A DNA stretch of 64,000 bases. Source: a bacterium. Lineage in GTDB: Bacteria > Patescibacteriota > Minisyncoccia > JACQLN01. Shown here in pieces: positions 24,157 to 39,018 of this stretch (positions within the stretch are counted from its first letter, which is position 1; the number at the start of each line of letters is the position of its first letter). Below the pieces are notes generated by a model, which did not search any database, had not been told where the DNA came from, and worked only from the letters and a program-made list of their open reading frames with translations. Where the stretch lies: assembly GCA_030697795.1 (NCBI GenBank), contig JAUYOV010000004.1, positions 211,334 through 275,333 of the forward strand. The letters run 5' to 3'. Position numbers and translations under genes: made by a program.

Positions 24157-25542
24157 TCAATCTCCACCTTTAGTCTCTAAGATCAAACTTTGACTAGAAA
24201 ATATTCTGTCAACCGCCAGGCCTTCGGGTTTAGTAGTAGATTCTATAGTAACCGTGACTGGTAACTTAGCGCCACTAGACACACTATCTTTTACTTTAAT
24301 TTTTAGCGTTATTTCTTTTTTTTCCAGGGGCTCTAGGCCAAAAAGATTGGAAGTGTTATCGCGGTTTAAAATTACGGTTTTAGAAGCAGAATCTAAACCA
24401 GTGCTTGGTTGCACCGAAGTTAAATTAAAACTATCACTATCAAACTTAACTTTTAAGGTTAAATTAGCCAGTGGAATATCTAAATTATTTTGATAACCAA
24501 TTTTATATGTAATCGTCTCACTCGCGCGCGCTGAAGTTATGCCGTCGGGGCTAGTATTTATAAACAAAGCCAAAGGCGCCATAATAAGTTTAACTGTGCC
24601 GCTGGCTTCTTTATATGTTTTCCAACTTGTGCCCTCCGCGCCTTCAACCAAAGCCCTAAAAACCTTGCCTTCACCTTCTAAACCCGTAACCACGCCTTTA
24701 ATAGTTAGGGTTTTTTCTTCTTGAGGCAAAACAGAATCTAGTCTCCAAACATTATTAAATTCAGAAAGTTTTTCCGAAGATTCTATTAGCCTAAAACCGG
24801 CTGGTGACTCCAAACGCAGTCTTAAGTTATTAAAAGCAACTTCGCCTTCGTTTTTTAATTTAAATTTAACCTCTACGTTTTCGCCCGAAATGGTCTCGGC
24901 GGAGGATTCCACGTTTAAACTTACTGGAAAAGAAGAAATTTTTATAGAGGCCGTAGCCATAGATTGAAAAACAATGGTGCCGGCCGAAGGCTTAAAATTA
25001 AAAACTGCCTGTGCCTTTCTTTCAAAATTATCACCGCCAAAAACAACTGCTTTGAACTCTCTTTCATAAAGACCGCTGGGCTTAAGTTCGGGAATATTGA
25101 TAGTTTGCTTTAAAATACTTTGTTTAAATTGATCAGCTTCAGCGGTAGAAATTACCGGCTGCGAAAAATCTGGAAACTGAAAAGTTAAAATACCATCTTT
25201 TAATTCGGTTTCGTTTTTATTAACCAATCGCAATTTCCAAGTAACAGTTTCGCCCGCACTAACTTCGGCCGGTGCATTTATTTTAATTTCTATACGATCT
25301 TTTCTAAAAGCATAAAAACCACGAAAGAAAACATAAACTGCCACAGTTACTGCCAGCAAAAAGAAAACACCCGCGCCTAGAAATATTTTTTTCCAAATAG
25401 CCGGCGAAGGAGTTGTATCTTCTACTGTTGGCGGAGGCACAATAGGCTCTTCTATAGGAATAGCGATATTTTCAACCGGTGGTAAAGTCGGTTTTTCTTC
25501 GGTATAAAGCTTTTTTTGTAGTTCTTCTAAATTATCTGCCAT
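24157..25542 (-). CDS. Single-pass membrane-anchored protein with extracytoplasmic beta-sandwich (DUF11/CARDB-like) repeats
   Basis: Pro-rich N-terminus, one TM (IFLGAGVFFLLAVTVAVYVFF), then about 380 aa of beta-rich repeats. Confidence 0.4.
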   Translation of the reverse strand: MADNLEELQKKLYTEEKPTLPPVENIAIPIEEPIVPPPTVEDTTPSPAIWKKIFLGAGVFFLLAVTVAVYVFFRGFYAFRKDRIEIKINAPAEVSAGETVTWKLRLVNKNETELKDGILTFQFPDFSQPVISTAEADQFKQSILKQTINIPELKPSGLYEREFKAVVFGGDNFERKAQAVFNFKPSAGTIVFQSMATASIKISSFPVSLNVESSAETISGENVEVKFKLKNEGEVAFNNLRLRLESPAGFRLIESSEKLSEFNNVWRLDSVLPQEEKTLTIKGVVTGLEGEGKVFRALVEGAEGTSWKTYKEASGTVKLIMAPLALFINTSPDGITSARASETITYKIGYQNNLDIPLANLTLKVKFDSDSFNLTSVQPSTGLDSASKTVILNRDNTSNLFGLEPLEKKEITLKIKVKDSVSSGAKLPVTVTIESTTKPEGLAVDRIFSSQSLILETKGGD

Positions 25543-26037: not shown

Positions 26038-26388
26038 TCAATGAGTTTTTGACGAGCGGATCCAACCGCCTAACATCCGCCCTATCTCATTAACCATTTC
26101 CTGAATTAAAATATATTTTTTATTCTCTAAAACACCAATATCTTTAGCCAAGCGGACATAAACCCTAAAAAGATTGAGCTTAACACTAACTCTTTCTAAG
26201 TATGTTACTCTTTTGAGCTTATCCAAACTGCTTATTTCCAACAAATAGCCCAATATCTCAATCAAAATCAAATTGCATTTCTCGCCTAAAGAATACTTGT
26301 CTTGCTTGGGAAAACCTTTCAAACAAGCATAAAATTCTTTATATAAATCGTAGGTTTTTTTAAATAGCGGAATATCAAAACTATCCAT
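26038..26388 (-). CDS. avd: Avd-like accessory variability determinant (avd2)
   Basis: 116 aa. C-terminus EIGRMLGGWIRS. Paralog of avd1 and avd3. Start diverges from RT2 with a 2-nt overlap. Confidence 0.75.
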   Translation of the reverse strand: MDSFDIPLFKKTYDLYKEFYACLKGFPKQDKYSLGEKCNLILIEILGYLLEISSLDKLKRVTYLERVSVKLNLFRVYVRLAKDIGVLENKKYILIQEMVNEIGRMLGGWIRSSKTH

Positions 26389-27382
26389 GAAAATTTATCA
26401 AAATATATACGAACAAATAATCTCTGCCGAAAATTTGTTTCTAGCTTGGGCAGAATTCAAAAAAGATAAACAAAAAAGAAAAGACGTTATGCAATTTGAA
26501 TACAGGCTGGAAAAAAATATTTTAGGCTTGTGCCAAGAACTAAAAAATCAAACATATAAGCATAGTCCTTATAGTAATTTTTATATAACCGACCCCAAAC
26601 CCAGGCACATTCACAAAGCATTGGTTAGAGACAGAGTGGTGCACCATTCAGTTTTTAATATCCTTAATCCTGTTTTTGAAAAAACTTTTATCTTTAATTC
26701 TTATTCCTGCAGAAAAAACAAAGGCACTCACAAGGGCATAAACCAATTACACAAAATTTTAAGAAAAATAAGCCAAAACAATCATAAACCATGCTTTATA
26801 TTAAAATGCGATATTAAAAAATTCTTTCAATCAGTTAATCACGGTATTTTGTTAAATATTATTGATCGAAAAATATACGATGAAAAAGCATTGGCCTTAA
26901 TTAAAGAAATTGTAGAGAGTTTTAAACCCGGGTTGCCCATAGGCAACCTAACCAGCCAATTATTTGCCAATATTTATTTAAATAATCTGGACCAATATAT
27001 AAAGCACCATTTAAAAATTCCCTTTTATATAAGATATACCGATGATTTTGTGATTATTTATAACGATTTGGAAAAACTAAAACAGTGGCTTAGCCAGATT
27101 CAGGAATTTTTAAATGTAAACCTAAAACTACGTCTGCATCCCAATAAAGTTATTCTGCGCAAATATCATCAAGGAACTGATTTTTTGGGCTATGTGCAAT
27201 TTCCCCATTATTGTATTTTGCGCCCTAGAACCGAAAGAAGAATAATGAAAAGGATACAGCAGGGAGTTTCTGAACAATCGCTAAATTCATATCTAGGTGT
27301 GCTTTCTCATGCTAATAGTTATAAATTATCGGAAAAAATCAAAAACTTGTTTTGGTTTAATAAAAAAGAAAACCCGTCTTGA
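26387..27382 (+). CDS. DGR reverse transcriptase (RT2)
   Basis: IGNLTSQLFANIYLN (SQ motif); IRYTDDFV. Matches RT1 and RT3 along its length. Confidence 0.85.
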   Translation: MKIYQNIYEQIISAENLFLAWAEFKKDKQKRKDVMQFEYRLEKNILGLCQELKNQTYKHSPYSNFYITDPKPRHIHKALVRDRVVHHSVFNILNPVFEKTFIFNSYSCRKNKGTHKGINQLHKILRKISQNNHKPCFILKCDIKKFFQSVNHGILLNIIDRKIYDEKALALIKEIVESFKPGLPIGNLTSQLFANIYLNNLDQYIKHHLKIPFYIRYTDDFVIIYNDLEKLKQWLSQIQEFLNVNLKLRLHPNKVILRKYHQGTDFLGYVQFPHYCILRPRTERRIMKRIQQGVSEQSLNSYLGVLSHANSYKLSEKIKNLFWFNKKENPS

Positions 27383-31243: not shown

Positions 31244-31813
31244 CTAATAAAAAGCAATACCGCCGTGTTTTAGTTCTTTTCTTATAGACAAATAATCTGG
31301 AATTGTTTTGGCCACTAAATTCCAAAAATTATGCGAATGATTAAATTCGCCCAAGTGGCAAAGTTCGTGAACAATAATATAGTCGGCAAAACTTGGCGAC
31401 AAAAGCGCAATTTTGTAGTTAAAATTTAAATTACCCTTTTTAGAACAACTGCCCCAGCGAGTTTTCTGGTTTCTTATATTAATTTTATTAAATTTAAAAT
31501 TATACAACTTATTAAAATATTCTACCCTGCTTTGAGCCAACGCCAATGCTTGGGTTTTGTGTTTAATAAATTCTTTTCTGGTATTTTTTACAGGCACCCT
31601 TGGAACAAAAGGCTTAAAACCTTCTAACTTTTTTAAAATCCAGTTTTTGTTTTTATTAACAAACTGGTTTATAAAATTCTGGTTAGCCGAATGAGGCGCG
31701 GTTAACACCACCGCGCCGTCGCAATAAATAGCCAGCCTTAATCTTCTGGCTTTCTTACTTATTTTTAGAGTGTATTTAATTTTTTCCATTTTAGAACATA
31801 CCAACATTCTCAA
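31244..31813 (-). CDS. M48/DUF45 (YgjP-like) metal-dependent hydrolase; likely real start at about 31789
   Basis: HEXXH motif in IIVHELCHLGEFNHSH. Layout matches the DUF45 family. Confidence 0.6.
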   Translation of the reverse strand: MRMLVCSKMEKIKYTLKISKKARRLRLAIYCDGAVVLTAPHSANQNFINQFVNKNKNWILKKLEGFKPFVPRVPVKNTRKEFIKHKTQALALAQSRVEYFNKLYNFKFNKINIRNQKTRWGSCSKKGNLNFNYKIALLSPSFADYIIVHELCHLGEFNHSHNFWNLVAKTIPDYLSIRKELKHGGIAFY

Positions 31814-32267: not shown

Positions 32268-32447
32268 CTGTTATTAGCCGATTCTTATTAGTTTAATCCG
32301 TTCTTGATTTAATTTTACCGCAACTTTCCCACTCCTGTAAAATATTTTTATAACCTTATAGAAACATGAAATTATCTGCACTTGAATTATATCGGTTGTG
32401 GATAACTTTCGGTTAATTTTCGGTATTGAAAATAGTATAATTAAGTT

Positions 32448-33794
32448 ATGAATAATCTAACTCCTAGGCAAAAACAAATCCTTGATTTTGTAACTAAATA
32501 TAGCAATAAGAAAGGCTATGCTCCTTCCCATAAAGAAATCGGGAAATATTTTAAACTTACTTCCTCTGCCACCATTAATGAGCACCTAGATGCCATTGCA
32601 AGTAAGGGTTATATAAATAAAGAAAAACATCAAAAAAGAAATATAGAAATTAAATCTTTAGAAACATTGGTTTCCGTACCCCTTGTTGGAACCATCACGG
32701 CTGGTGAACCAATAGAAACATATGAAATCCCAGAAAAAATATCAGTACCAAAAAACCTTTTATCTCAACAGGGTGAACACTTTGCTTTAACAGTTAATGG
32801 TAATAGTATGATTGGCGAAGGAATTTTTAGTGGAGATACAGTGATTGTTCGTAAGCAAGATACTGCAAAAGACGGAGATAGTATAGTTGCACTTATAAAT
32901 GGAAGTGAAACAACATTAAAAAAGATATATAAAGAAAAAAATGGCTTTAGGCTTCAACCAGCTAATCCAGAACTCAAACCAATATTTGTAAAACAACTTG
33001 AAATACAAGGCAGGGTTATAAGTGTCATTCGTAATCTAGAAACCTTAGTAAATAAAATTAACTGTGGCGATGTTTTGGAAACAATTAAAAAAATACCAGA
33101 AAGTTCAGTACACCTAGCAATAACTTCCCCGCCATATAACGTTGGAAAAAGCTATGATAATCATAACGATAAAATGGAGTATTCTGACTATCTTGATTGG
33201 TTGTATAAAGTTTGGCAGGAAACAAAAAGAGTTTTAGTTCCTGGTGGAAGATTTGCTATAAATATTGCTCCAACTGGTATAAAAGATTTTGTACCAATAC
33301 ATCACGATTTTATAGCTCAACTCAGGAAACTCGGAATGAAATTTCGAACAGAAATTATATGGTACAAACAAACAATGCTAAAACGAACTGCGTGGGGAAG
33401 TTTTAAAAGCCCAGCCAACCCACATATTGTTCCGTCTTGGGAATATGTTTTGATTTTCTCTAAAGATCAAGATCGTTTAGATGGAGATAGTAAAATGGCT
33501 GATATTACCAAAGATGAGTTTATGAAATTTTCCGATGGATTTTGGCAGATTTGGCCAGAAAGACAAAGAAAAGGACATCCAGCTCCATTTCCCGAAGATT
33601 TAATATATAGATTAGTAAAATTCTATTCCTATAAAGATAGTACTATTTTGGATATGTTTGGAGGAACAGGCACAGTAGCAACTGTAGCCGCCAAAACTGG
33701 TAGAAATTTTATACACATAGATGTTTCTCCTCAATACTGTAAAATCGCTAAAGACAGACTAGAAAAAGAAATTAACCAAGGAAAGTTAGTTTAA
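32448..33794 (+). CDS. Fusion protein: LexA-like repressor (wHTH plus S24 self-cleaving peptidase) fused to a beta-class amino (N4/N6) DNA methyltransferase
   Basis: Residues 1-200 match LexA (HTH; Ser in VNGNSM; catalytic Lys in TLKKI; C-terminal QGRVISVIR). Residues 200-448 carry MTase motif IV SPPY (LAITSPPYNVGKSYD) and an AdoMet motif (DMFGGTGT). Confidence 0.7.
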   Translation: MNNLTPRQKQILDFVTKYSNKKGYAPSHKEIGKYFKLTSSATINEHLDAIASKGYINKEKHQKRNIEIKSLETLVSVPLVGTITAGEPIETYEIPEKISVPKNLLSQQGEHFALTVNGNSMIGEGIFSGDTVIVRKQDTAKDGDSIVALINGSETTLKKIYKEKNGFRLQPANPELKPIFVKQLEIQGRVISVIRNLETLVNKINCGDVLETIKKIPESSVHLAITSPPYNVGKSYDNHNDKMEYSDYLDWLYKVWQETKRVLVPGGRFAINIAPTGIKDFVPIHHDFIAQLRKLGMKFRTEIIWYKQTMLKRTAWGSFKSPANPHIVPSWEYVLIFSKDQDRLDGDSKMADITKDEFMKFSDGFWQIWPERQRKGHPAPFPEDLIYRLVKFYSYKDSTILDMFGGTGTVATVAAKTGRNFIHIDVSPQYCKIAKDRLEKEINQGKLV

Positions 33795-34364
33795 TTTGTT
33801 TGAATACCAATTAACAAGGTCTTTGGCTAAACTACTTAATGCTTTTAACTTGCCTCCTAATTTAGTTTTGTTGTTTTCAATATATATTCCGTCTGTATAA
33901 TGGGAACCTAGTTGTCTATCTTTTGTTGGACTTTCTTCACTACCCCATTCTGACTGCCAAGACCGCCCACTTTGCTGTCTTCCTTTGTCAGGAGTAGAGA
34001 AAACAAATTTTAAACTTGGAATCATATCTTTTAAAACAACAGCATAAAATAATGATTCTGAAAGTCTTCCGTGTAAACTAGTTTTACAACTTATAATTGC
34101 AACGGGATTGTTGTTTCCATCAACTACAACAAGATCTATATCGCCCCAAATTCTTTGATTAGAATTAATTTTGCCAACGGGAATACTAAGTTTTTTCCAT
34201 AAACTACTATCATTTCTAGCATCATCACCTCTTATGACTTTTAATTTAGATTTAAGAGAAATCAAATCTTGATTTACTTTATCTCTGACAAAATGCTCCC
34301 AAGCTCTACCGCTTTTTTGGACATATCTTTGTCTTTGACTATTTGTTTCGTAGTTATTAGGCAT
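33786..34364 (-). CDS. Putative PD-(D/E)xK restriction endonuclease, convergent with and overlapping the methyltransferase by 9 nt
   Basis: Core GDIDLVVVDGNNNPVAIISCKTS fits the D...(D/E)xK pattern. 192 aa. Confidence 0.4.
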   Translation of the reverse strand: MPNNYETNSQRQRYVQKSGRAWEHFVRDKVNQDLISLKSKLKVIRGDDARNDSSLWKKLSIPVGKINSNQRIWGDIDLVVVDGNNNPVAIISCKTSLHGRLSESLFYAVVLKDMIPSLKFVFSTPDKGRQQSGRSWQSEWGSEESPTKDRQLGSHYTDGIYIENNKTKLGGKLKALSSLAKDLVNWYSNKLN

Positions 34365-34370
34365 ATTATT

Positions 34371-37300
34371 TTAAATATTTTTAATCCCCACCCCGATTTC
34401 AAATCCTTCATAATTCCAAACTTTGTGGACCAAGAAATTTTCGTGTTCGGTTATGCCAAAGTTAATTTGTGTAGAACGAGTTTCGGCTTTTATAACTTGT
34501 TCCCAACGAGTTAATAATTCTTTAAAGTTGGCGTTTTGGTTAAGTTCGTAATGTAAAATTATTTTATCTTCTGGTGTTAATTTGGCTTCTTTTCGCATTT
34601 CGTTTATATTGCGAATCATTTCACGAACCATTCCTTCTTCCTTAAGCTCCGCCGTAAGTTCGGTATCCAAATTAACGTTGTTCTTTTCTATTTTTCTATC
34701 ACTTAAAACTTTTTTAACATTGAGTTCTTCGGCAACTATATATAGAACATCGCCAATTAAATTGTAATCAGCCGGTGAAACATATAAAGCATTTAAGGGC
34801 TGGCGTACGCGCAAACCCGCTTGAGCGCGCTCGGCAAGCCCCAGCGCCACAATTTCGCGGGCTCTATCCATGACTTTCGTAATATCGGAAGCCTTAACAG
34901 TTTTGGTATTTGGCCATTTTTCCAAATGAACCGACTCCCCAAACGCCGATAAACGCCGATTTTTATCCGCGCTGATCCGCGCTGATCCTTGCGTTAATCC
35001 GCGTAATTCTTGATAGAGCCATTCCGATATAAACGGCGCAAATGGCCCCATAACAACAGATACGCGTTTTAAAACTTCGGTTAAAGTATTTTGAGCCGAT
35101 AGTTTTTCGGCATCTATATTTTGCTTTTGGAACTTACGGCGGCTACGGCGTATATACCAATTAGAAAGTTCGTCTATAAAAGCTTCTATAGCACGCGAAG
35201 CGGAAGTAATGTCGTAGCTTTCTAAAAATTTATTTACTTCGAACTCCAACATTTCTGTTTTAATCAAAACCCATTTATCTAAAATATCTGTTTTGGCTAG
35301 TAAAGATTTCGGAGCTTCGGTGTAATAAGTTTCTAAAAACAAAAACGAATTAATTAAAGTATCGGCGAATCTACGTTTTTTAGATTCTATATCGCGCAAA
35401 CTAAAAAGTTTATTATCGCCCGGCGCGTTTACAGTGTAAAAATACCAACGCATCATATCGAACCCAACTTTCTCACCCACCAGCCAAGGGTCTACAATGT
35501 TCCCTTTAGACTTCGACATCTTCTCGCCCTTTTCATCTAGAACATGGTTTAAACTAATTACATTCTTATACGGATTACCTTCGCCTAAAGCGGTAGATAC
35601 CGCCATTAAAGTATAAAACCAGCCCCGGGTTTGATCGATCGCTTCGCAAATATAATCTGCTGGAAAATGGTCTTTCGGTAAATTTTTATTTTTTATATTT
35701 AAATTTTTCTTGTCCTTCGAAGCCTTGCTGTGCCACTCCGTAGCTTTGAGCGAAGGGTGGGCGTAGGAGGAAACTTGAGACGCCCACGGCATTGCACCCG
35801 AATCAAACCAAACATCGGCCAAGTCTTTTATACGTTCCATCTTCGAGGAACACATAGAACACTTAAGGAACACGCTATCGGCATAGGGGCGATGCAGGTT
35901 TAAATTGCCTTCTTCATCGTGGGGCCAGTTATTTGTTTCTACAAAAGTAAATTCGGCAGGGGACAAAGCTAGTTTAGAATCTTTAACTGCGTTTTGATAC
36001 AAAAGTTTTGTTTCGTCTTCGCCATAAATTCCATTAGATAATTGCATTAAAAATAAGGGGTCCATATGGCTTACCACAACCACCTTCTTGCCAGCGTGTT
36101 CTCTAGAAACATCCATCATAAATTCGCGCACCCGTTTGGCCACATCCAACCACGATTCGCCTGCCGGCGCGGGGCGAATAAATTTATCTTTAAAAGAATT
36201 AAAATATTTTTCATATTCCAAAAATGGCCCGCCATTAAACTCGCCAGTGTTTATTTCGCGTAAGCGTTCATCAAAAATTACTTCTTTTATTTTAAGTTCG
36301 TCCGCCAATATTTGAGCCGTCTCTCTGGCTCTTAATAGATCCGATGAATATATGGCCGATACCTTATTAGCCGCCAAAAGTTTTTTTATATTTTGGGCGG
36401 ATGCCTCTGCTTGTTTTCTACCCTTTTCGGTTAGGGGGTTTAAAATCTTTTCAGGGTAAGCACTGCAAATACCTTTAGCGTTAGATTCTGCTTCGCCATG
36501 GCGCATTAAAATTAAAGTGGTTGGAGAATCTAGGCGGTGTTCGTTAAGCTCGGCTAAAGAACCAATAACAGTTTTGTGTTCGCATTTGGTGCATGCCCAA
36601 ATTGGCAAGGGTGTTCCCCAATAGCGTTCGCGGCTTATAGCCCAGTCTTTAACCTCGCGTAACCATTCGCCAAACCGGCCATCTTTAATGTGTTCGGGCA
36701 CCCAATTAACTTTTTCGTTATTTTTAATTAGATCGTTTCTTAACGCCGACATTTTTATAAACCAACTTTCTTGGGCGTAATATAGTAAGGGCGATTTACA
36801 CCTCCAGCAAAAAGGATATTCGTGCTTATAGCTTGACTCATTAAACAGCAAATTTTGTTTTTTTAAGTAAAACAAAATCGTTTTTTCGGTTATGGGGTCT
36901 TTTTTGTTTTCACTAACAACAGCAAGCCCGCCTACTATAGGAACAGATTTTACAAAAACTCCTTCACGATTAACCGTGTGGAATTTAGGCAAATTTAATT
37001 TGGAACCGAGTTCAAAATCGTCGACGCCATACATTACGGCTGTATGCACAATGCCCGTACCATCTGCGGTAGTTACAAAATCGGCTTCGTAAACTCTGTA
37101 CGAATTTTCGGATTCCAACTCTTTAACAGCAAAAAGTGGTTCGTAAGAAAGTCTAGTAAGCTCGCTAGAAGTTAGTTCTTTATTTATTTTGTATTCTACT
37201 TTAGCCTCGCCAAAAACTTTAGGCGCTAAATCGCGAGCCAAAATATATTTTTCACCATTAGCTTCGACTTCTACATAGGTAACTTTCGGGCCAACAGCTA

Positions 37301-38003
37301 ACGCAACATTTCCCGGTAACGTCCAAGGCGTCGTGGTCCAAGCCAAAAGAAAAGTGTTTTCTCCGCCAGCTGGCGGATTTTTAACTTTAAATTTTATTAT
37401 GACCGACTTATCTGTAACTGTTTCGTAACCCTGCGCCACTTCGTGGCTGGAGATGGGCGTACCACACCTAACACAAAAAGGCACAACTTTATAATCTTTA
37501 ACTAAAAGTTTTTTATCGTAAATTCTTTTTATAATATTCCACAAACTTTCTATGTATTGCGGTTCGTAGGTTATGTATGGGTTTTTAAGGTCGAGCCAGT
37601 AACCCATGCGGCGCGTTAGCTTTTCCCATTCATCTTTATACTGCCAGACTGATATTTGGCATTCTTTATTAAATTGAGCGATGCCGTATTTTTCTACTTC
37701 GCGCTTATTTTTTAAACCTAATTTTTTTTCGACTTCAATTTCTACCGGCAAACCGTGTGTATCCCAACCAGCCCGACGCAAAACATAGCGCCCTTTCATT
37801 GTTTGAAAACGGCAAACAATATCTTTAAACGATCTAGCTAAAACATGATGGAGCCCTGGTTTACCGTTGGCCGTAGGCGGGCCTTCGTAAAATACGAAAG
37901 GTTTACCATCTTTAGTGGCTTTTAAAGTCTTTTCAAAAACATCGTTATCGTGCCAATGTTTTAAAACTTTTTCTTCTTCTTGGGGTAAATCAACGTGACG
38001 CAT
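34371..38003 (-). CDS. ileS: Isoleucyl-tRNA synthetase with an inserted histidine-phosphatase (PGAM-like) domain and repeat-derived in-frame inserts
   Basis: HIGH-type motif PPTANGKPGLHHV; KMSKS; editing domain. The insert LILMRHGEAESN...VVVSHMD (RHG and second His motifs) sits between WACTKCEH and LHRPYAD. Confidence 0.9.
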   Translation of the reverse strand: MRHVDLPQEEEKVLKHWHDNDVFEKTLKATKDGKPFVFYEGPPTANGKPGLHHVLARSFKDIVCRFQTMKGRYVLRRAGWDTHGLPVEIEVEKKLGLKNKREVEKYGIAQFNKECQISVWQYKDEWEKLTRRMGYWLDLKNPYITYEPQYIESLWNIIKRIYDKKLLVKDYKVVPFCVRCGTPISSHEVAQGYETVTDKSVIIKFKVKNPPAGGENTFLLAWTTTPWTLPGNVALAVGPKVTYVEVEANGEKYILARDLAPKVFGEAKVEYKINKELTSSELTRLSYEPLFAVKELESENSYRVYEADFVTTADGTGIVHTAVMYGVDDFELGSKLNLPKFHTVNREGVFVKSVPIVGGLAVVSENKKDPITEKTILFYLKKQNLLFNESSYKHEYPFCWRCKSPLLYYAQESWFIKMSALRNDLIKNNEKVNWVPEHIKDGRFGEWLREVKDWAISRERYWGTPLPIWACTKCEHKTVIGSLAELNEHRLDSPTTLILMRHGEAESNAKGICSAYPEKILNPLTEKGRKQAEASAQNIKKLLAANKVSAIYSSDLLRARETAQILADELKIKEVIFDERLREINTGEFNGGPFLEYEKYFNSFKDKFIRPAPAGESWLDVAKRVREFMMDVSREHAGKKVVVVSHMDPLFLMQLSNGIYGEDETKLLYQNAVKDSKLALSPAEFTFVETNNWPHDEEGNLNLHRPYADSVFLKCSMCSSKMERIKDLADVWFDSGAMPWASQVSSYAHPSLKATEWHSKASKDKKNLNIKNKNLPKDHFPADYICEAIDQTRGWFYTLMAVSTALGEGNPYKNVISLNHVLDEKGEKMSKSKGNIVDPWLVGEKVGFDMMRWYFYTVNAPGDNKLFSLRDIESKKRRFADTLINSFLFLETYYTEAPKSLLAKTDILDKWVLIKTEMLEFEVNKFLESYDITSASRAIEAFIDELSNWYIRRSRRKFQKQNIDAEKLSAQNTLTEVLKRVSVVMGPFAPFISEWLYQELRGLTQGSARISADKNRRLSAFGESVHLEKWPNTKTVKASDITKVMDRAREIVALGLAERAQAGLRVRQPLNALYVSPADYNLIGDVLYIVAEELNVKKVLSDRKIEKNNVNLDTELTAELKEEGMVREMIRNINEMRKEAKLTPEDKIILHYELNQNANFKELLTRWEQVIKAETRSTQINFGITEHENFLVHKVWNYEGFEIGVGIKNI
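34941..35009. repeat. ATCCGCG-unit repeat in frame inside ileS
   Basis: AAACGCCGATAAACGCCGAT...ATCCGCGCTGATCCGCGCTGATCC..TAATCCGCG. Confidence 0.7.
35714..35770. repeat. Small palindromic repeat family, copy in frame inside ileS
   Basis: CCTTCGAAGCC...CCGTAGCTTTGAGCGAAGGGTGGGCGTAGGAGG. Confidence 0.7.
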
Positions 38004-38022: not shown

Positions 38023-39018
38023 TTAAGCTAGCGGAAAATAAGACATTAGTAAAATATCGGTAATTCCATAAGTATTCCCATGCTTCAACAACCCCAAATA
38101 AGAACTTACCGTTTCTGGCTCTGGGTTCTCTCCAATTCTTTTCATCATCCGTTTTTTAGTAACTGTTCTTAAAACTTTATGATCTGTAAAATGAACCCAA
38201 CCCAAAAAATCCGCACCCGAAGCTAGAGTTTTGATAAAAACTTTGTCGGGGTGGAGTGTGAGTTTGAGATTTTTAATTAAAAATTCTTGAATCTTTGGGA
38301 TTAAGTTCTCTAACCATTCTTTGTCTTGCGATAAAACCACAAAATCATCGGGGTATCTAATGTAATACTTAACTTTTAATTTATGTTTAACAAACTGGTC
38401 AAACTTGTTCATATAGATATTCACCAAAAGCTGGGAGGTTAAATTGCCCAAGGGCAAACCAATATTGGGTTTTGTTTTAAAACTGGACACAACATTATTG
38501 AGTAACCAAATAATATTTTTGTCTGGTATATATTCAGTTAGTATCTCTAGCAAAACTTTGTGATGAATACTGGAAAAGAATTTTTTAATGTCGCATTTTA
38601 AGACCCAGCAAGTTTTAGTGTTATTTTGACCAACTTTGTAAGCAAAAGACTGAAAACGATTCAGGGCTTTATGCGTGCCTTTGTTCTTTCGGCAAGAAAA
38701 AGAATCGGCTATGAATGTTTTATCAAAGAAAGGGTAAAGAATATGATAAATTGCGTGGTGAAGTAGCCTATCCCGAACTGTGGCTTTATGTATGTTTCGG
38801 GGTTTGGGGTCGGAAATATTGAAAGCTTGGTAAATGCCATGCCGATAAGTGAAATTGACCAAGTCTTGGTTAAGTTGAAAAATATTATCCATTAAATTAA
38901 AGCCAAATTCCTGCACATCTTTTCTTTTTCTCTTGCCTTTGATAAACTCCTGCCAAGCCAATAACAAATTATCAACGCTAATAACATCTTCAAAACTATG
39001 GATCAATTGAGTTTTCAT
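38023..39018 (-). CDS. DGR reverse transcriptase (RT3)
   Basis: LGNLTSQLLVNIYMN (SQ motif); IRYPDDFV. Paralog of RT1 and RT2. Confidence 0.85.
   Translation of the reverse strand: MKTQLIHSFEDVISVDNLLLAWQEFIKGKRKRKDVQEFGFNLMDNIFQLNQDLVNFTYRHGIYQAFNISDPKPRNIHKATVRDRLLHHAIYHILYPFFDKTFIADSFSCRKNKGTHKALNRFQSFAYKVGQNNTKTCWVLKCDIKKFFSSIHHKVLLEILTEYIPDKNIIWLLNNVVSSFKTKPNIGLPLGNLTSQLLVNIYMNKFDQFVKHKLKVKYYIRYPDDFVVLSQDKEWLENLIPKIQEFLIKNLKLTLHPDKVFIKTLASGADFLGWVHFTDHKVLRTVTKKRMMKRIGENPEPETVSSYLGLLKHGNTYGITDILLMSYFPLA

Follow-up and report, generated by a model that had tools for sequence, protein, structure and literature searches.

A LexA-type repressor joined to the DNA methyltransferase of a Type II restriction-modification locus in Patescibacteria

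A 64-kb stretch of DNA from a patescibacterial genome (assembly GCA_030697795.1, contig JAUYOV010000004.1, positions 211,334 to 275,333; hereafter the window) contains a gene in which a complete LexA-type repressor is joined to a DNA methyltransferase (MTase), and this gene faces a convergent open reading frame (ORF) coding for a restriction endonuclease of the BsaWI/AgeI type. We consider it probable that the locus is a Type II restriction-modification (R-M) system whose MTase carries its own damage-sensitive transcriptional controller. The identity of the domains and the pairing of the two genes are practically certain. The original prediction, made by reading the letters of the window, had pointed out this arrangement and suggested that self-cleavage triggered by the SOS response could change R-M expression or methylation after DNA damage.

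The fusion ORF (32448..33794, + strand, stop codon included) codes for a protein of 448 amino acids (aa). Pfam searches found three domains: the LexA winged helix-turn-helix (wHTH) DNA-binding domain (LexA_DNA_bind, PF01726) at aa 1-64 (32448..32639; 1.2e-18, profile positions 1-64 of 65), the Peptidase S24 domain of catalysis and dimerisation (PF00717) at aa 78-191 (32679..33020; 3.2e-31, positions 1-116 of 116) and N6_N4_Mtase (PF01555) at aa 221-435 (8.8e-46). The proposal that the first roughly 200 aa constitute a full-length LexA agrees with the NCBIfam LexA equivalog profile TIGR00498, which scored 188.6 bits (cut-off 110.95) over positions 1-202 of 203. In a search of PDB sequences residues 3-197 aligned over the whole Thermotoga maritima LexA (3k2z, 125.8 bits). 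NCBI annotates the protein as 'transcriptional repressor LexA'; with 448 aa and a C-terminal MTase it does not have the length of a free-standing LexA (about 200 aa). The LexA-type autocleavage site, ITA/GEP, is predicted from residue conservation between Ala85 and Gly86 (32700..32705). The two residues of the S24 dyad, Ser120 in the GNSM motif (codon at 32805-32807) and Lys158 in the TLKKI motif (32919-32921), are both in place.

The S24 domain is connected to the MTase by a linker (about aa 192-205, 33021..33062), which is variable in sequence and ranges from 13 to about 40 residues across the homologue alignment, without a conserved internal methionine or start codon. The rest of the protein (33063..33794) is an N4/N6 DNA MTase, which had been assigned to the beta class on reading the sequence. 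The order of its motifs, SPPY (motif IV, aa 227-230, 33126-33137) followed by the S-adenosylmethionine (AdoMet) motif I (FxGxG), here DMFGGTG (aa 402-408, 33651-33671), is that of the beta permutation. PADLOC called the C-terminal half MTase_II, a Type II methyltransferase (1.7e-72), and the best PDB match of residues 201-442 was the Thermus methylase TTHA0409 (2zie, 139 bits). As to the target base, matches to the N4-cytosine MTases 8s9n and 1boo and the SPPY variant of motif IV favour N4-methylcytosine; the N6-adenine enzymes RsrI and CcrM match as well. The AlphaFold2 (AF2) model of the whole fusion was of moderate quality (predicted local distance difference test, pLDDT, 73; predicted template modelling score, pTM, 0.51) and uninformative about domain packing. 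In the light of these sequence matches, the protein is a complete LexA, with wHTH, a hinge containing the Ala-Gly site and the Ser/Lys domain, joined to a beta-class SPPY MTase.

In a protein search of 5.8 billion sequences the fusion proved to be no isolated event; with such E-values, and with hundreds of independent contigs in which it recurs, chance is ruled out. Among the 120 clusters listed 119 were full-length fusions and one was N-terminally short; at least 119 protein clusters thus have the LexA_DNA_bind + S24 + N6_N4_Mtase architecture, with 63-94% identity to the window protein. Among the named clusters are Staskawicz-, Zambryski-, Azam-, Levy-, Shapiro- and Roizmanbacteria. In the 119 full-length fusions listed Gly86, Ser120 and Lys158 were invariant (119/119 each), Ala85 was found in 118, and SPPY and the FGGTG motif were kept in 118-119. 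A careful alignment could have revealed the loss of the Ser/Lys dyad, and it did not. Mean identity to the window protein differed strongly by region: wHTH 45%, hinge 24%, S24 65%, linker 40% and MTase 81%. The cleavage residues have thus stayed constant while the wHTH and the hinge drifted, which argues that cleavage matters.

The nuclease ORF (33786..34364, - strand, 192 aa), which codes for a type IIP restriction endonuclease of the CCGG family, overlaps the fusion ORF by 9 nt, exactly as first described, and no terminator-like site was found between the two convergent genes. Its start is 6 nt from the stop codon of ileS. The suggestion that it has a PD-(D/E)xK nuclease core is supported by the Pfam profile RE_BsaWI (PF18643; 39.6 bits, cut-off 26.2) and by the predicted fold. 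The AF2 model of the nuclease (pLDDT 91.5, pTM 0.88) had three significant PDB matches in Foldseek: AgeI (1.5e-6, TM 0.69), BsaWI (6e-4) and Kpn2I (9e-3). A sequence search against PDB gave no match; the relationship to these structures was detected by the fold search alone. At least 120 clusters of 186-200 aa make up the family; PF18643 is present in all of them, and their NCBI name is 'BsaWI family type II restriction enzyme'. Invariant in the family are D75, D77, S92-C93-K94, E103 and a PTKDR stretch (33915-33929, - strand). The core noticed in the original reading, GDIDLVVVD...ISCKTS, maps to D75, D77, S92-C93-K94 and E103; D75, D77, K94 and E103 are candidate catalytic residues, and the PTKDR stretch may correspond to the R-(D/E)-R-type motif that reads CCGG. 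The possibility that the 192-aa protein is a truncated BsaWI, an idea prompted by the partner in an Azambacteria locus (287 aa, 29% identity), was rejected: the form of about 190 aa is a large separate family. AgeI cuts A/CCGGT, BsaWI W/CCGGW and Kpn2I T/CCGGA. Because the modelled fold matches these three enzymes, the target of the window nuclease likely contains CCGG.

We scanned 185,579 species-representative genomes, one genome per species. About 19 of them carry the fusion (20 loci were tabulated, one of which repeats an Azambacteria locus). The fusion loci are mostly in metagenome-assembled genomes of Patescibacteria type; a few records are labelled Gammaproteobacteria or Bacteroidales, labels that are unconfirmed. 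In about 60 further loci the MTase module (aa ~197-447) stands by itself, with 65-82% identity; these loci are from DPANN archaea, Dehalococcoidia, Thaumarchaeota and Planctomycetes. Such identity of the stand-alone MTase across domains of life (loci L022 and L024-L083) is unusually high for an R-M methyltransferase. There was no LexA gene near the stand-alone MTase in any of the stand-alone loci examined.

Nuclease partners were assigned by iterative profile searches of the ORFs in the fetched loci. Whether fused or alone, the MTase nearly always adjoins either a BsaWI-like nuclease (about 190 aa or 235-290 aa) or an HNH nuclease (about 195 aa). In the Thaumarchaeota loci no nuclease neighbour was detectable. 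A nuclease gene adjoins the fusion in all 21 distinct loci (the window and 20 others), BsaWI-like in 10 and HNH in 11, so that the adjoining separate MTase and endonuclease genes that define a Type II system are present in the window, in every fusion locus and in most loci of the stand-alone MTase. A close relative, L004, was instructive. It has 84% DNA identity with the window through the fusion gene exactly to the stop codon, and the identity resumes from the 3′ end of ileS; between these points (L004 1183-1852, window 33795-34380) L004 has an HNH gene and the window the BsaWI-like gene. These breakpoints indicate that the nuclease was exchanged in situ, and the exchange implies continued selection for a partner. 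In four of the HNH-type relatives (L008, L009, L011 and L013) a gene coding for an XRE-type helix-turn-helix (HTH) protein lies directly upstream of the HNH nuclease. The one in L008 (3456-3725, - strand) codes for a protein of 89 aa (HTH_3, 3e-11) resembling the controller (C) proteins of R-M systems. These four loci carry both a C-protein-like controller on the nuclease gene and a LexA fusion on the MTase. Before the window nuclease a small XRE-HTH controller gene is absent.

The fusion loci occupy differing neighbourhoods, often defence or toxin-antitoxin islands. The locus is a mobile R-M module, which gained the LexA domain in Patescibacteria. An origin in phages was rejected: IMG/VR has only MTases of up to 43% identity, and among 50,697 GenBank phage records there was no fusion, the four hits with at least 80% coverage being adjacent separate genes. 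Among 72,556 plasmid records the fusion was found in none. A prophage record of Acinetobacter (L296, CAKLQF020000006.1, 2294-5030) has a cI-type S24 repressor followed by an RsrI-like MTase and a DGQHR-domain gene; here, as a distant parallel without fusion, an S24 repressor stands beside an MTase in a proteobacterial prophage.

The region upstream of the fusion gene reads TGTGGATAA-C-TTTCGGT-TAAT-TTTCGGT-ATTGAAAATAG-TATAAT-TAAGTT-ATG. A search for an operator upstream had been proposed as a check, and it yielded a candidate: two 7-bp direct repeats, TTTCGGT-TAAT-TTTCGGT, with an exact period of 11 bp in the -35/spacer region (32407..32424, + strand). It is the single match in the 64-kb window. 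TATAAT (32436..32441, + strand), 6 nt before the ATG, is the likely -10 box, judged by reading the sequence against the promoter consensus. There is no Shine-Dalgarno sequence before the ATG of the fusion, and the -10 box is only 6 nt from it, suggesting a leaderless or near-leaderless mRNA. In a consensus of 75 distinct related promoters TATAAT is about 10 nt past the second repeat and the start codon about 5-8 nt further. The second repeat often abuts the -10 box (TTTCGGTATAAT).

An exact 7-mer repeat with period 11 was found within 100 bp upstream of the gene in 17 of 26 LexA-type loci, compared to 47 of 8202 background windows (0.6%). None of the other periods from 8 to 15 was enriched. 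The repeat unit differs by lineage (TTTCGGT, CTTCGGG, TTCTAGT, TTCGTA, CTCGGGT, TATCATA), and so does helix 3 of the wHTH: x-E/Q-H occurs with TTCGG, N-H-Y with TTCTAG and H-H/Q-Q/F with TTCGTA. The canonical lexA of Saganbacteria has an 11-bp-period repeat as well, and LexA is known to bind direct repeats of this period (GTTC-N7-GTTC) in Alphaproteobacteria (PMC4951493). Judged from these sequence features, it is highly probable that the protein represses its own gene through the repeats.

One nucleotide upstream of the operator is the 9-mer TGTGGATAA (32397..32405, + strand), the reverse complement of a perfect DnaA box, TTATCCACA. The DnaA-box consensus is TTWTNCACA, and TTATCCACA is the strongest DnaA box. 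TGTGGATAA has a single copy in the window. Of its 23 exact copies in 831 kb of loci 12 sit 50-86 bp upstream of a fusion gene, so that the exact box is upstream in 12 of 18 fusion loci, with 11 other copies in the 831 kb. The relaxed consensus TTWTNCACA was present upstream in 20 of 26 LexA-type loci, as against 1.8% of background windows. The variants TGTGAATAA and TGTGGAAAA differ solely at degenerate positions of the consensus. Box and first repeat are separated either by 1-2 nt or, one helical turn more, by 10-14 nt, a bimodal spacing, and in some loci box and repeats are inverted together as a unit. Two other roles for the 9-mer were rejected: a general promoter element would not be found just once in 64 kb, and a LexA half-site would not stay constant while the operator unit varies. 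The same constancy makes a conserved host protein a better candidate binder than the LexA module. DnaA would be the obvious candidate.

In one locus (L171) there are two perfect TTATCCACA boxes, at -86 and -20. A second DnaA-box-like 9-mer (TGTGGAAAA or TGTGGATAA) was also seen directly before the start codon (ctgtggaaaactaatATG) in several metagenome loci and in L164/L165, about 14 nt before the ATG; in these loci the boxes flank the promoter on both sides.

We then scanned metagenome DNA for the composite promoter, TGTGGATAA-N0-20-TTTCGGT-N4-TTTCGGT; the counts that follow are among the matches listed. A LexA-family ORF adjoined 107 of the 111 evaluable copies, in the order box-repeats-gene in 87 and inverted in 20. 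The 65 distinct complete fused ORFs at these promoters carried N6_N4_Mtase (44), C5 DNA_methylase (9), MethyltransfD12 (9), N6_Mtase/Eco57I (6) or MT-A70 (2) domains. Behind short LexAs with the composite promoter came either an MTase (C5 or N6_N4) or a nuclease of the DpnI family. In the fetched loci, too, box and repeats stand before unfused LexA genes and before LexA genes fused to MTases of the gamma, Eco57I-type and C5 kinds. The operator alone, with at most one mismatch, was found at 136 sites in 1.07 Mb of related loci, all with a box nearby and all beside LexA-family genes. No operator preceded any other gene, nucleases included, in the 1.07 Mb or in the 64-kb window. This restriction to LexA-family genes indicates local autoregulation, not a regulon. 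Direct control of the nuclease promoter by LexA was dropped as an explanation for the same reason, there being no operator before the nuclease in any fusion locus.

A separate search with the LexA part (aa 1-198) covered 1.84 billion cluster representatives. Most of the top 60 or so matches (44-68% identity) were proteins of 270-890 aa in which LexA occupies residues 2-197. Ordinary LexAs, with about 200 aa, were mixed in from 52% identity and dominant below it. All 50 long matches scanned carry LexA_DNA_bind and S24. Their C-terminal parts are N6_N4_Mtase in 30, Eco57I/N6_Mtase/TaqI_C (gamma class) in about 12, MethyltransfD12 (Dam-like) in 5 and C5 DNA_methylase in 3, and the Ala-Gly, Ser and Lys residues are invariant across these 50, in the fusions to other MTase classes too. 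Long matches with a name were from Nealsonbacteria or 'Patescibacteria group bacterium'. Over the whole class, lineage names, where a record bears one, are patescibacterial except for a few other, unconfirmed labels.

The neighbourhoods of these genes resemble the window in layout. A LexA-gamma-MTase gene with a convergent ORF of 302 aa was found in a toxin-antitoxin/defence island, and a LexA-Eco57I-type MTase gene is followed by a C5 MTase and then by a convergent nuclease of the Alw26I family. Even the nearest short relatives head restriction operons. In one arrangement LexA overlaps an N6_N4 MTase gene, in a second it precedes a DpnI-family nuclease, and in a third it stands before a D12 MTase and opposite an AlwI nuclease. 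In L171 (1125-2551), L172, L226 and L230 an unfused LexA gene with the box-plus-repeat promoter has a DpnI-family (methyl-directed) nuclease gene 5-15 nt on. An SOS-type neighbour (a radical-SAM/HHH gene) was found only with the Saganbacteria LexA, which has about 46% identity. By sequence homology, the LexA module is thus joined to, or directly upstream of, DNA MTases of five unrelated families and DpnI-type nucleases, and the common denominator of the class is a LexA-type controller of restriction genes, not specifically restriction alleviation.

From these observations a mechanism can be proposed for the window locus. A dimer of the LexA module would bind both direct repeats in the -35/spacer region and repress its own gene. 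The logic of repression would be that of M.SsoII and M.EcoRII, with strong MTase expression in a naive cell and a low steady state later. DNA damage would produce filaments of RecA on single-stranded DNA, which would stimulate self-cleavage at Ala85-Gly86; the wHTH would be detached, the promoter derepressed and more MTase made. The S24-MTase fragment would stay an intact, potentially active enzyme. The triggering damage may include double-strand breaks that the nuclease of the same system introduces where its sites are under-methylated, and unbalanced R-M activity does induce SOS (PMC3874152). A Type II system would thereby have a built-in counterpart of damage-induced restriction alleviation, together with feedback that senses under-methylation. 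DnaA may also take part: the centre of the box is near -46, the -35 of the promoter is poor, and DnaA might act there as an activator and couple MTase synthesis to replication status. More speculatively, derepressed transcription might run into the convergent nuclease gene and lower its expression.

These steps are not equally credible. RecA-dependent cleavage as the physiological switch, the core of the original suggestion, gains plausibility from the invariance of the cleavage residues and from the overlap of operator and promoter, and we lean, if only slightly, towards accepting it. A role of DnaA falls somewhat short of being probable, and interference with the nuclease gene is unlikely. 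Tentatively, one may extend the proposal to the class and imagine that Patescibacteria use the self-cleaving LexA module with its portable promoter of DnaA box and 11-bp repeats as a general plug-in restriction controller, which, when fused to the MTase, would make Type II modification replication-gated and inducible by RecA-sensed damage, off-target cuts by the system itself among it; we give this somewhat less credence than the role of DnaA.

Several points weigh against the proposed damage-sensitive controller. The case for DNA binding, cleavage, RecA dependence and methylation has been made at the sequence level. The 64-kb window, a part of a 278-kb contig, contains no recA. The enrichment counts for repeats and box were drawn from evolutionarily related loci and are not independent events, the covariation of helix 3 with the operator is qualitative with a partial exception in L001, L020 and L021, and the promoter, with its poor -35, was assigned by consensus only. 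In the unfused LexA-DpnI operons cleavage would raise the nuclease, not an MTase, after damage, so restriction alleviation cannot be the universal logic of the class. In the HNH relatives with their own C-like HTH protein, control of the nuclease does not depend on the LexA module. Finally, in counts of palindromic hexamers and tetramers WCCGGW (including ACCGGT and TCCGGA) was not depleted in the 64-kb window, which is too small to decide; long-term restriction pressure at this motif is not evident.

Some of these points would be accommodated if the LexA module were only a dimerising, DNA-binding autorepressor, of the same kind as C proteins or the SsoII-type domain except for its fold, in which slow autocleavage sets the lifetime of the protein or has no role. 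Autoregulation alone accounts for an operator overlapping the promoter, the HTH-MTases offer an analogy, no recA was seen in the window, and the module also controls DpnI-type nucleases, for which damage induction has no obvious protective logic. On the other hand, a plain HTH would suffice for autorepression, as it does in other R-M systems, and the invariance of Ala-Gly, Ser and Lys in 119 + 50 proteins, next to only 45% identity in the wHTH and 24% in the hinge, is hard to explain without selection for cleavage. We consider plain autorepression unlikely, though deserving to be kept in mind beside a cleavable, damage-sensitive LexA module.

The fusion could also be the host's master SOS repressor, which captured an MTase and controls a genome-wide regulon, with methylation as a side activity. 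The protein passes the LexA equivalog cut-off and bears the corresponding NCBI label, the window contains no other LexA gene, and the operator of the canonical Saganbacteria lexA has the same 11-bp geometry. However, boxes upstream of repair genes, the mark of an SOS regulon, were absent locally, that is, from the 64-kb window and the 1.07 Mb of related loci; the operator is single in the former and occurs only beside LexA-family genes in the latter. A fusion present in about 19 of 185,579 genomes, in changing and often defence or toxin-antitoxin neighbourhoods, hardly fits such a role, nor does a module found on five unrelated MTase families and always with restriction genes, and the nearest ordinary LexA with an SOS-type gene is only about 46% identical. 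This makes a master repressor very improbable. Equally improbable is an effectively solitary MTase, an epigenetic or immunity remnant with an inactive nuclease and a LexA regulation unrelated to restriction, since the undepleted WCCGGW and the Thaumarchaeota loci, in which the same MTase family lacks a nuclease partner, are outweighed by a window nuclease with all family-invariant residues and normal family length, by a nuclease partner in 21 of 21 distinct fusion loci with the in-situ HNH swap in a close relative, and by the count of CCGG in the 2.2-kb locus, 0 observed versus about 3.9 expected.

Around the locus the window has some further features. The isoleucyl-tRNA synthetase gene next to the nuclease (34371-38003, - strand) codes for 1210 aa, with a histidine-phosphatase insert (His_Phos_1, 5.3e-35, aa 497-650) between the halves of the catalytic domain. 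Two reverse transcriptases of 331 aa each flank the region (26387-27382, + strand, RVT_1 1.8e-20; 38023-39018, - strand, RVT_1 5.9e-26) and may belong to diversity-generating retroelements. A DUF11-repeat protein is encoded at 24157-25542. Upstream of the fusion, at 31244-31813 (- strand), there is a gene for a YgjP-like metallopeptidase (PF01863, 7e-43). In the window, in L005 (3987-4526) and in L166 (1970-2539), one of these loci being an unrelated LexA-Eco57I-type locus, a YgjP-like gene is found at 0.6-2.5 kb on the upstream side of the LexA-MTase gene, and it is possibly a recurrent neighbour of LexA-MTase genes. Three palindromes are strongly depleted in the window: TGTACA (1 observed, 21 expected from composition or 4.4 from a Markov model), TACGTA (2 versus 21) and TCGA (78 versus 181 by the Markov model). 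This hints at other restriction systems in the lineage.

Both the architecture and its wide occurrence are well established, and they would come as a surprise to specialists in R-M and in SOS alike. In the full-text literature covered, which did not extend to a 2017 study of SOS in Patescibacteria, neither a LexA-MTase fusion nor a LexA-controlled R-M system is described. A 2025 EcoSal review of R-M systems never mentions LexA (PMC12707154), and a 2013 review in Nucleic Acids Research mentions it only for toxin-antitoxin systems (PMC3874152). A large class of LexA-restriction systems in Patescibacteria has thus apparently remained undescribed. The word 'unusual', used of the architecture in the original prediction, fits the searchable literature better than the sequence databases, in which the architecture is common and modular, with five MTase families and unfused operons.

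It is poorly understood how Type II R-M systems spare their host after damage, in the course of repair synthesis or whenever methylation falls behind. If the proposed mechanism is true, the SOS signal is linked directly to modification capacity, and the locus would be the first intrinsic circuit of restriction alleviation and self-damage feedback for a Type II system, with the antitoxin-like enzyme as the damage sensor. The occurrence of the module with five MTase families and DpnI-type nucleases points to a lineage-wide regulatory strategy in Patescibacteria, which are reported to rely on R-M rather than CRISPR. Many database entries that bear the label 'transcriptional repressor LexA' in fact belong to R-M systems and would distort reconstructions of SOS regulons in these phyla. 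With a DnaA box beside the LexA operator, replication control and modification may be connected in a way that is so far unexplored.

The closest known kind, as far as sequence allows comparison, is the autoregulating HTH-methyltransferase: the functional definition agrees, whereas fold, enzyme class and gene arrangement differ. The N-terminal HTH of MTases of the M.SsoII/M.EcoRII type binds an operator in its own promoter, autorepresses and sets the balance of MTase and nuclease (PMC3874152). M.SsoII, M.Ecl18kI, M.EcoRII and M.ScrFIA resemble the fusion in having an N-terminal DNA-binding domain and an operator overlapping their own promoter, the operator of the fusion being predicted. They are C5 MTases whose HTH is short and simple; they lack a protease, and their genes are mostly divergent, with competing promoters. 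The fusion is a beta-class amino-MTase with a complete LexA/S24 part, belongs to a class with five MTase families, and has convergent genes and a DnaA box in the promoter.

With canonical LexA (TIGR00498; 3k2z, 1jhh) the fusion shares a full-length colinear match, the cleavage site, the dyad and, by prediction, an operator in its own promoter, whose 11-bp period resembles the alphaproteobacterial GTTC-N7-GTTC. It differs from canonical LexA by the covalently joined enzyme of 250 aa, by an operator found, within the window and the related loci, at its own gene only, and by its sporadic, mobile occurrence inside restriction loci. The C proteins are likewise a dedicated small transcription-factor module of R-M systems, timing and balancing their expression, and the unfused LexAs, like C genes, stand first in operons with an MTase or a nuclease. 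Unlike the LexA module, C proteins have an HTH of the XRE type and a length of only about 80-100 aa; in most cases they activate or repress the nuclease gene, and they have no signal-sensing protease. Repressors of the lambda CI type have a homologous S24 domain and, being self-cleaving, tie a mobile gene set to the RecA signal of the host. Unlike the fusion, they act on lysogeny or transfer genes, their HTH is of the XRE type, and they are proteins separate from the enzyme under their control.

As for the nuclease, its modelled fold is that of AgeI, BsaWI and Kpn2I, and its candidate catalytic residues may form the same D...(S/C)xK...E arrangement; it is shorter (192 aa versus about 270-300), without the N-terminal region of BsaWI-size relatives, and only 13-16% identical. 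Damage-induced restriction alleviation has been described only for Type I enzymes, where it proceeds via degradation of HsdR by ClpXP (PMC12707154). The outcome proposed for the fusion is the same, less self-restriction during the repair of damaged DNA. The Type I route is host proteolysis of the restriction subunit, whereas the fusion would achieve it by transcriptional derepression of a Type II methyltransferase through self-cleavage.

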